NCBI GenBank assembly: GCA_013265495.1
Contig: MU058045.1
Coordinates: 319,241 to 383,240, forward strand
Direction of reading: 5' to 3'
DNA from: Vicugna vicugna
Lineage: Eukaryota
DNA length: 64,000 bases
This document shows, in pieces, positions 24,449-25,881 of this stretch. A program made the position numbers and the translations under genes. The notes beneath the pieces were generated by a model. The model worked only from the letters and a program-made list of their open reading frames with translations. It did no database searches and was not told the DNA's origin. How positions within the stretch are numbered: the stretch's first letter is position 1; every line of letters starts with the position of its first letter.

Positions 24449-25881
24449 ATGGTGAGTGTGGGGGCCAGGGGAGCATAGCTCCTCTCCCTGTAGCTCCTGG
24501 CTGCTTTCCCTTCCTCCCCTAAAACTTCCCAATTATCCTAGACACCCACAAGTGAAATTCATAATCGTGTACCCAGATGTCCCTGGAACCTGTGACATCA
24601 CACAGACACACAGCATCTAAGGCTCCCTCCCCTCCTCAAACCAACAGAGCATCCCTGGTGACCCAGAGAAACAGGATGCTCCAGGACTGCTCACTCCCTG
24701 CTTCCTGCTTTAGAGGCTCAAGGCACACATGTACCACCTTATCCATCTTTCAGGCCCTTTCTAGCTCCCAAGAGTTCCTTAGCAAGACCCTCTATTGTCC
24801 CACAGGTTCCCAGAACCCAGCCCGGCATTCACACTGCCCCAGGTCCCCTGGTCTATGGCTGCCCTAATGCCCGAGCTCCTTTCTCCCTAACAGGCTGCCA
24901 GTCACCCCTACTTCAACCTGCCCAACTTCACCCAGCCATCACCTCCCTCCACTCCGCCTAGCCTCCCCTTGCACCAGTGCTGCCGGCCCTCTGATGCCAC
25001 CAAGGGCCTGCTCATGGCCCTGCTGGGTGGGGGCCTGCCCACTGGCTTCGTGGGCCTCTTCTCCCGTGTGGCTTACCAGGCTTCCCACTTACCCTCGCTG
25101 GAGCTGCTCAGATTTCGATGCTTCTTCCACCTCCCCATTGCCCTGCTGCTTAAACTGCATGGTGATCCACCGTTGGGACCTCCCGATGTCCGGGGCCAGG
25201 CCTGCCTCCATGCCCTGCTCAGAGTCTTCAGCATCGGATGCACCTACAGTGCAGTTCAGATGGTGCCCACTGGCAACGCTGCCACCATCCACAAAGGTTC
25301 TTCCACCGTCTGCTCTGCTCTCCTTGCCCTTTGTCTTAAGAACCAGCATCTCAGTGGCTATGACTAGTGTGCTTGTTGGACAGCACCCTGGGACTCATCA
25401 TCGTTGTGGGACCTGGGCTAGGGACACTGCAAAAGAGGATCATGGGCTTCTATACCACTCTGGGCTACGTGCTCACTTTCCTGGGTGGCCTGGCCCTGTC
25501 GCCAGACTTTCCCTCCTGCCTACCGACAGTGGCCTTCCTGTTTGGCTTGGTGGGGCTGGTGGGCTCCGTGCTGGGCCTCTTTGTGCAGCAGACCCCTGTG
25601 CTGCCCAATGATCCTCTGAGTTGGAGCTGTGTGTGGACAGTGGGGATTTATGCCCTTGTCTCTTTGTGTGCCCGTGCTATGCGGTCGCCAAGGCCCATCC
25701 CACCCTAGTGTGCACCGTCCTGCACTCTGAGGTGGTGGTGGCCCTGATGCTGCAGTATTATGTGCTCAATGAGACCGTAGCACCTTCTAACATCATGGGG
25801 GCAGGAGTGGTGTTGGGCAGCATTGCCATCATCACCGCCCAGAACCTCAGCTGTGAGAGGGAAGGGCAGGTGGAGGAGTGA
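24449..25881 (+). pseudogene. SLC35G6: Disrupted SLC35G3/SLC35G6 (AMAC1-like) EamA/DMT-family transporter gene
   Basis: ATG-only first coding exon 24449-24451 then gtgagt; acceptor cag|24894 gives [10 protein letters not shown]...[12 protein letters not shown]...; ends [15 protein letters not shown] at 25881; AATAAA 25919-25924. Lesions: TAG 25365-25367, -1 frameshift near 25371, ~8-codon deletion near 25502, -1 frameshift near 25662. Confidence 0.88.

Follow-up and report, generated by a model that had tools for sequence, protein, structure and literature searches.

The SLC35G6/Slc35g3 gene is broken by real pseudogenisation at its syntenic, intron-containing locus in the 64,000-nucleotide stretch of Vicugna vicugna DNA analysed here (hereafter the window). 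The locus carries a premature stop, two frameshifts, and an in-frame deletion, and the decayed allele is found in 14 DNA-type sequencing runs from seven studies. With fairly high confidence, it is proposed that this gene, broken at its ancestral place, is likely the only copy and likely died on the camelid stem, earlier than the divergence of camels and llamas; UDP-GlcNAc may now be provided by a general transporter such as SLC35B4. Camelids thus seem to provide, in fertile animals, a natural knockout of a gene that male mice need for fertility.

The ancestral locus and its disabling lesions

The locus between ZBTB4 and POLR2A is the SLC35G6/Slc35g3 orthologue in its ancestral place. The top matches in a protein search with the first 157 codons of exon 2 are all SLC35G6 proteins (82–84% identity), and the EamA profile PF00892 is matched in both the N- and C-terminal frames. 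The mouse orthologue and the window gene alike have two coding exons, and orthologue proteins open with M-A-G/A-S-H-P-Y. A preliminary description of this DNA had placed an intron-containing gene of two exons beside ZBTB4 and POLR2A, and the ATG, GT donor, 442-bp intron, CAG, and AATAAA are all where it had put them, with both neighbours present in the window (Table 1). The right neighbour is presumably POLR2A, named from its sequence features. A processed pseudogene (retrocopy) at this locus was considered and rejected, as both the intron and the ancestral neighbours are present.

The surroundings of the locus have several features of their own. The ZBTB4 exons are nearly identical to the Camelus ferus model P0072, with 4 mismatches over five aligned pieces (gaps aside), while the sperm whale protein has 94% identity to the window. 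At 8164–8262, a stretch to which none of the seven further ZBTB4 proteins compared could be aligned, 33 of 33 residues of P0072 are identical to the window; this is the final exon of P0072, which also skips several internal stretches and looks like a faulty model from a gapped assembly. The match to P0072 assigns the window to a camelid. The poly-serine tract of ZBTB4 (14401–14538) is longer than in the sperm whale and bat proteins, with 22–29 gap positions in the exon. After CHRNB1, a near-perfect head-to-tail duplication of ~325–329 bp occupies 6913–7567, in which blocks of 256 and 74 bp are 100% identical; the sequence was either duplicated very recently or is an overlap left by the assembly. 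One repeated element is a putative camelid SINE. Upstream of the gene (22973–24451), the long SLC35G6 models of hippo, horse, and cattle (414–723 aa) carry extra N-terminal sequence, and the N-terminal extension of the hippo model resembles a GC-rich open frame at 22977–23894. These long models are likely artefacts, or transcripts starting at a shared ZBTB4 promoter.

Table 1. Features of the SLC35G6/Slc35g3 locus and its neighbours in the window
Feature	Position	Strand	Evidence
Start codon ATG, the coding part of exon 1, with the GT donor directly after it	24449..24451	+	sequence
Intron, 442 bp, GT...CAG, intact; donor GT at 24452, CAG ends at 24893	24452..24893	+	sequence
Exon 2 coding remnant of SLC35G6/Slc35g3, EamA-type transporter; 279/327 residues identical to the pig protein	24894..25881	+	alignment, profile
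Premature TAG replacing W159	25365..25367	+	5/5 alignments
First -1 frameshift, codon G161, ~25371	25371..25372	+	5/5 alignments
Junction of 24-bp in-frame deletion; 8 residues, ~L205–S212, end of hydrophobic segment 6	25499..25502	+	5/5 alignments
Second -1 frameshift, ~S266, inside hydrophobic segment 8, exact base ambiguous	25661..25675	+	~25661 in 4/5 alignments
Ancestral stop TGA, still present	25879..25881	+	sequence, alignment
Polyadenylation signal AATAAA	25919..25924	+	sequence
ZBTB4, left neighbour, two open coding exons, synteny marker; near-identical to Camelus ferus model	11059..14783	-	ORFs, protein alignment
POLR2A (presumed), right neighbour, exons as ORFs up to heptad-repeat exon, synteny marker	35546..50042	+	ORFs

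The lesions were located by a frameshift-aware alignment of the locus to five orthologue proteins (deer, cat, rhino, gibbon, and horseshoe bat). The preliminary description had named a TAG at 25365, a -1 frameshift directly after it, about eight missing residues near 25502, and a second -1 frameshift near 25662, and all four were recovered. The first three recur in every alignment, and the second frameshift falls at ~25661 in four of the five and at 25673 with the horseshoe bat protein, which is itself one residue short there. The two frameshifts sum to a net -2, with no mutual compensation. Because the TAG precedes the fifth of ten hydrophobic segments, an open frame for ten membrane helices is absent, and the predicted product up to the TAG has 158 aa and four of the ten segments. 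Rescue by one internal splice was rejected, as the 91 single joins that stay open yield at most 225 residues and the only consensus-like join yields 147 aa. The transcript would likely escape nonsense-mediated decay, since the stop sits in the last exon, and could yield no more than a stub of 158 aa with four helices. The human T179 frameshift leaves a longer product than this and is inactive (PMC12611266), and the camelid stop lies 20 codons before it, so that a null is expected.

The presence of the decayed allele was also probed by seeking 185 sampled words of the locus in sequencing runs, of which 24 were listed. Fourteen DNA-type runs (seven studies, six organism labels) contain 0.96–1.00 of the words, and as an allele with neither the derived changes nor the lesions could share at most ~0.54, these 14 runs carry the decayed allele. 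Eight of them are flagged as a possible source and the other six, from five studies, are unflagged. Three runs from two studies contain all 185 words, with a 2–4% chance that a given lesion went unsampled. For the six unflagged runs, the probability that all lesions fall within the 7 missed words is P = 0.20, and the shares do not prove each lesion singly. Six RNA runs, three of which are labelled reproductive system, contain 0.05–0.32 of the words, which may reflect partial cover or a more distant camelid and is not taken as evidence of transcription.

Release from selection and the age of the loss

The remnant was read through with X at the breaks and compared with the laurasiatherian majority residue over 327 positions. 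It differs at 46 of these, as compared to 2–14 in 14 laurasiatherian orthologues (pig 2, cattle 4, hippo 5). Similarly, 27 of the 241 columns that are invariant in 19 placentals are changed in the remnant, while laurasiatherians have 0–5 changes and the guinea pig, the highest, has 15. Against the most divergent comparator, Fisher p values are 1e-5 for total differences and 3e-5 for invariant columns. In a tree that excluded the partial proteins P0262 and P0267, the end branch of the remnant is 0.19 versus 0.003–0.026 in other laurasiatherians, making it ~7–60 times longer. Single C>T or G>A steps account for 28 of the 46 changes (18 at CpG), and such steps make up only 312 of 2083 possible replacements (15%). 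Three of the 46 changes adjoin lesions and may be alignment effects. The N-terminal frame is no less decayed, with 24 changes in 157 codons. This substitution pattern, judged by protein-level rate and mutation spectrum, is that expected of a sequence released from selection. The claim of real pseudogenisation in the preliminary description is thus borne out by the four lesions, the residue changes, and the decayed allele in the DNA runs. A scan of metagenome contigs for orthologue DNA gave 108 pattern matches, 0 of which were confirmed. Intact full-length orthologues are present in the outgroups, including pig, hippo, ruminants, whales, horse, rhino, carnivores, and bats.

The breadth of the loss is suggested by a search for short relatives, which returned six matches, one at 96% identity; this match and its cluster mate are P0262 and P0267, both from assemblies of public runs. 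Over positions 42–149, these proteins carry 16 of the 17 window-derived residues (15 without the start residue), and other laurasiatherians have 0–3 changes over the same positions. P0262 and P0267 differ from the window at 3–4 of 108 residues, too many for them to be alleles of animals in the 14 DNA runs. Both terminate at L149 and the window frame at 158, and no lesion is shown to be common to them and the window. They are likely from Camelus, the other camelid tribe, with an earlier stop of their own, although they may be a dead duplicate, or the end at L149 may be a contig end. The camel and llama tribes split 11–25 My ago (PMC4884201), and another estimate gives 16.3 My for the tribes and 55–60 My for the artiodactyl split (PMC12127551). 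Such a split, together with the derived residues in common, suggests that most of the decay predates it. Consequently, on the residues of these relatives, the loss is probably common to Camelus and would therefore be old.

A simple clock dates the loss to 66–188 My (ranges 28–688), while the stem implied by PMC12127551 is roughly 40 My; the clock is distorted by early CpG decay and small counts. Because it overshoots the length of the stem, the conclusion is restricted to "early on the stem", and constraint was likely lost early on the camelid stem. A search with the 205-aa alternative frame, made as a test for a common first frameshift, gave six matches at ≤77% identity, none of them camelid-like among the five examined, and an exact look-up of five window ORFs in the protein collection found 0 of 5.

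Other copies and alternative explanations

Orthogroup N0.HOG0000971 (Data S1 of PMC12127551) contains one model each in alpaca, Bactrian camel, dromedary, and wild camel, as well as several human members and single ones in mouse, pig, and cattle. In RefSeq the four camelid loci stand as coding models (XM_031676204.1, XM_010966001.1, XM_031469475.1, and XM_014559909.2), and RefSeq may correct stops and frameshifts in such models (PMC12127551). The alpaca, Bactrian, and dromedary accessions sit among those of DNAH2, KDM6B, GUCY2D, BORCS6, and PIK3R6 (PMC12127551). For guanaco, llama, and vicuna the table gives the alpaca number again, so these columns add no independent data. The alpaca, Bactrian, and dromedary accessions also sit among rows that are putatively TMEM102 and TNFSF12, and in the Bactrian camel the rows for what are presumably ZBTB4 and POLR2A directly follow each other within the main run. 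Based on this numbering among the genes of the region, the single annotated camelid member is very likely this locus. The block includes normal genes (DNAH2, KDM6B), and the numbering therefore indicates place and not breakage.

Clusters and motifs offer a further view of possible copies. No camelid name occurs among the 153 listed of the 313 members in 19 SLC35G6 clusters, with 99 of the remaining 160 in the broadest cluster; the same 19 clusters include pig, hippo, ruminants, whales, horse, rhino, and carnivores. Furthermore, among the 176 proteins fetched, the full-length ones each contain at most one of eight camelid-derived motifs. On this annotation and these listings, it is probable that no intact copy exists elsewhere in the camelid genome, although an unannotated one may be present. 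The preliminary description had left the choice between a unitary loss and replacement by a retrocopy, and the single orthogroup member per camelid, numbered in the region, favours the unitary loss and argues against the replacement.

Several alternative explanations for the broken locus were considered. The window does hold a candidate assembly overlap at another place (6913–7567), which raises the thought that the lesions are assembly errors or the private variants of one animal. This is exceedingly improbable, as three runs from two studies contain every word and all 14 contain at least 0.96, the ZBTB4 and POLR2A exons in the window are open, and errors would not yield 46 transition-biased replacements common to other sequences. 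There is also very little probability that the gene is alive as a fast-evolving 158-aa half-transporter with a new role. While no damage is seen in the start codon, the splice sites, or the poly(A) signal, and 157 codons of the N-terminal frame remain open and still match the EamA profile, this frame is as decayed as the remainder (24/157), the last part of the EamA repeat is missing (profile 3–117 of 135), the relatives P0262 and P0267 end elsewhere (149 versus 158), and the longer human truncation is inactive (PMC12611266).

Two further alternatives accept that the window locus is dead and concern what other camelid loci do. If the loss were confined to the branch of the window, likely llama–alpaca, then Old World camels would keep a working gene and P0262 and P0267 would be a dead duplicate. 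The 46 replacements are too many for 11–25 My (PMC4884201), given only 3–4 differences in 108 residues between the forms, and no full-length camel protein is present among the SLC35G6 homologue matches listed; a loss so confined is quite unlikely, despite the RefSeq coding models in three Camelus species and the lack of a lesion shown to be common to the window and P0262/P0267. It is improbable, too, that the dead parent locus has been replaced by a working retrocopy or duplicate at some other place in the camelid genome. Such a replacement is plausible a priori for a gene that is nearly single-exon, testis-expressed, and essential in mice, and humans have several family members. However, each camelid has one orthogroup member, numbered among the genes of the region, and neither the 153 listed cluster members nor the motif comparison of the 176 proteins pointed to a camelid copy. 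The preferred explanation is a unitary loss on the camelid stem.

Other shortened or frameshifted SLC35G products were encountered in these searches. The whale-like SLC35G6 products P0268 and P0264 (93.6% to cetacean proteins, on 18 and 3 contigs) lack 7 residues and end out of frame at 202 aa; they possibly represent either another loss, in cetaceans, or a dead copy. In the fin whale model P0037, ~42 residues are skipped. The naked mole-rat AMAC1 model P0261 (230 aa) has a frameshifted end, which could stem from an error in an old assembly or belong to the decay of naked mole-rat sperm genes. In the muroid-rodent-like P0266, P0269, and P0270, ~94 internal residues are missing in frame in three members, possibly through an internal splice within exon 2. 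Lastly, P0307 is another decayed, frameshifted mammalian SLC35G copy that lacks the camelid-derived residues.

Function, possible compensation, and known systems

Slc35g3 is the only testis-specific SLC35 in the mouse, where it is the Golgi UDP-GlcNAc transporter of round spermatids, and its requirement for male fertility was reported in 2025 (PMC12611266). The link to testis and sperm given in the preliminary description is right and stronger than stated there, as knockout males are sterile (PMC12611266). Knockout sperm have defects in utero-tubal passage, zona binding, and fusion, and at a ten-fold dose they fertilised 21 of 46 eggs in vitro (PMC12611266). SLC35B4 is expressed earlier in spermatogenesis, and both SLC35B4 and SLC35G3 rescue the GlcNAc signal in cells (PMC12611266).

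It is proposed that SLC35G6/Slc35g3 function would have ceased in the stem lineage of camelids, ahead of the camel–llama divergence, and that the Golgi of camelid spermatids would be supplied by a general UDP-GlcNAc transporter, for example SLC35B4. A shortfall in UDP-GlcNAc might carry a low cost where semen is placed at the oviduct papilla, since the defect is dose-dependent and alpaca semen is deposited at the uterine papillae (PMC11023217). SLC35B4 is one-to-one in all camelids of the orthologue table (PMC12127551). Compensation by another transporter, made cheap by semen at the oviduct papilla, is putative and is put forward tentatively, with somewhat less than even confidence.

Additional observations bear on sperm passage in camelids. 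Alpacas still use the utero-tubal junction as a sperm reservoir (PMC11023217), a seminal lectin mediates oviduct binding (PMC13552269), and in cattle such binding involves surface GlcNAc (bioRxiv 10.64898/2026.08.07.743513). Seven of the 12 gene names asked (CLGN, PDILT, CALR3, PRSS37, PGAP1, SPACA4, and TMPRSS12) are one-to-one in all 11 species (PMC12127551), with absence from this list being uninformative because POLR2A is absent too. These seven retained genes and the junction reservoir count against a general bypass of sperm passage, and the defect in mice extends to zona binding and fusion, neither of which would be cured by deep insemination. A bolder proposal is that all living camelids have been without the only spermatid-specific nucleotide-sugar transporter for tens of My with no replacement, papilla insemination and seminal lectin-mediated binding having released the GlcNAc-elongated glycans of sperm from selection. 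This proposal is doubtful; if true, the glycans coating camelid sperm at fertilisation would resemble those of sterile Slc35g3 knockout mice.

Two questions are named as open in PMC12611266: the reason for the change from SLC35B4 to SLC35G3 in spermatids, and the fertility of men who carry two loss-of-function alleles. Fertile mammals that lack SLC35G3/6 as a whole family are a direct test of both. Either a general transporter would prove able to substitute, or the glycans would prove unnecessary where sperm reach the oviduct directly at mating. The loss also speaks against regarding SLC35G3 as a contraceptive target or infertility gene in all mammals, and it may be relevant to how camelids handle sperm, which is poorly understood.

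The camelid locus resembles mouse Slc35g3 and mammalian SLC35G6 (AMAC1 family) in its two coding exons, EamA domains, and place beside ZBTB4 and POLR2A. In contrast to the working SLC35G6, it has a stop at W159, two frameshifts, and an 8-residue deletion, and cannot encode the ten-helix protein. No report of SLC35G loss in camelids was found in the literature searched or in the available parts of the supplements of PMC7498332 and PMC12127551; TOGA/Zoonomia tables, bioRxiv supplements, and subscription journals may list it. Unitary loss of a mouse-essential gene is an ordinary, known kind of event.

The closest parallels are the unitary pseudogenes of an erosion screen (PMC7498332), such as CETP in camel and alpaca and ZP1 in artiodactyls, which are likewise lineage-specific losses, at the orthologous locus, of genes with strong knockout phenotypes; SLC35G is not named in the part of its supplement available. 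A similar lineage-specific loss is that of ADAM3, which is inactive in humans (PMC12611266). Unlike the cases in PMC7498332, the camelid loss affects the supply step of sperm glycosylation while several client-side genes are kept. Sperm genes have likewise been lost in the naked mole-rat, a fertile mammal (bioRxiv 10.1101/2024.11.26.625329), and SLC35G is not named in the text of that preprint. The naked mole-rat has a broad decay of many sperm genes, whereas the camelid loss, judged by the seven retained genes, looks isolated.
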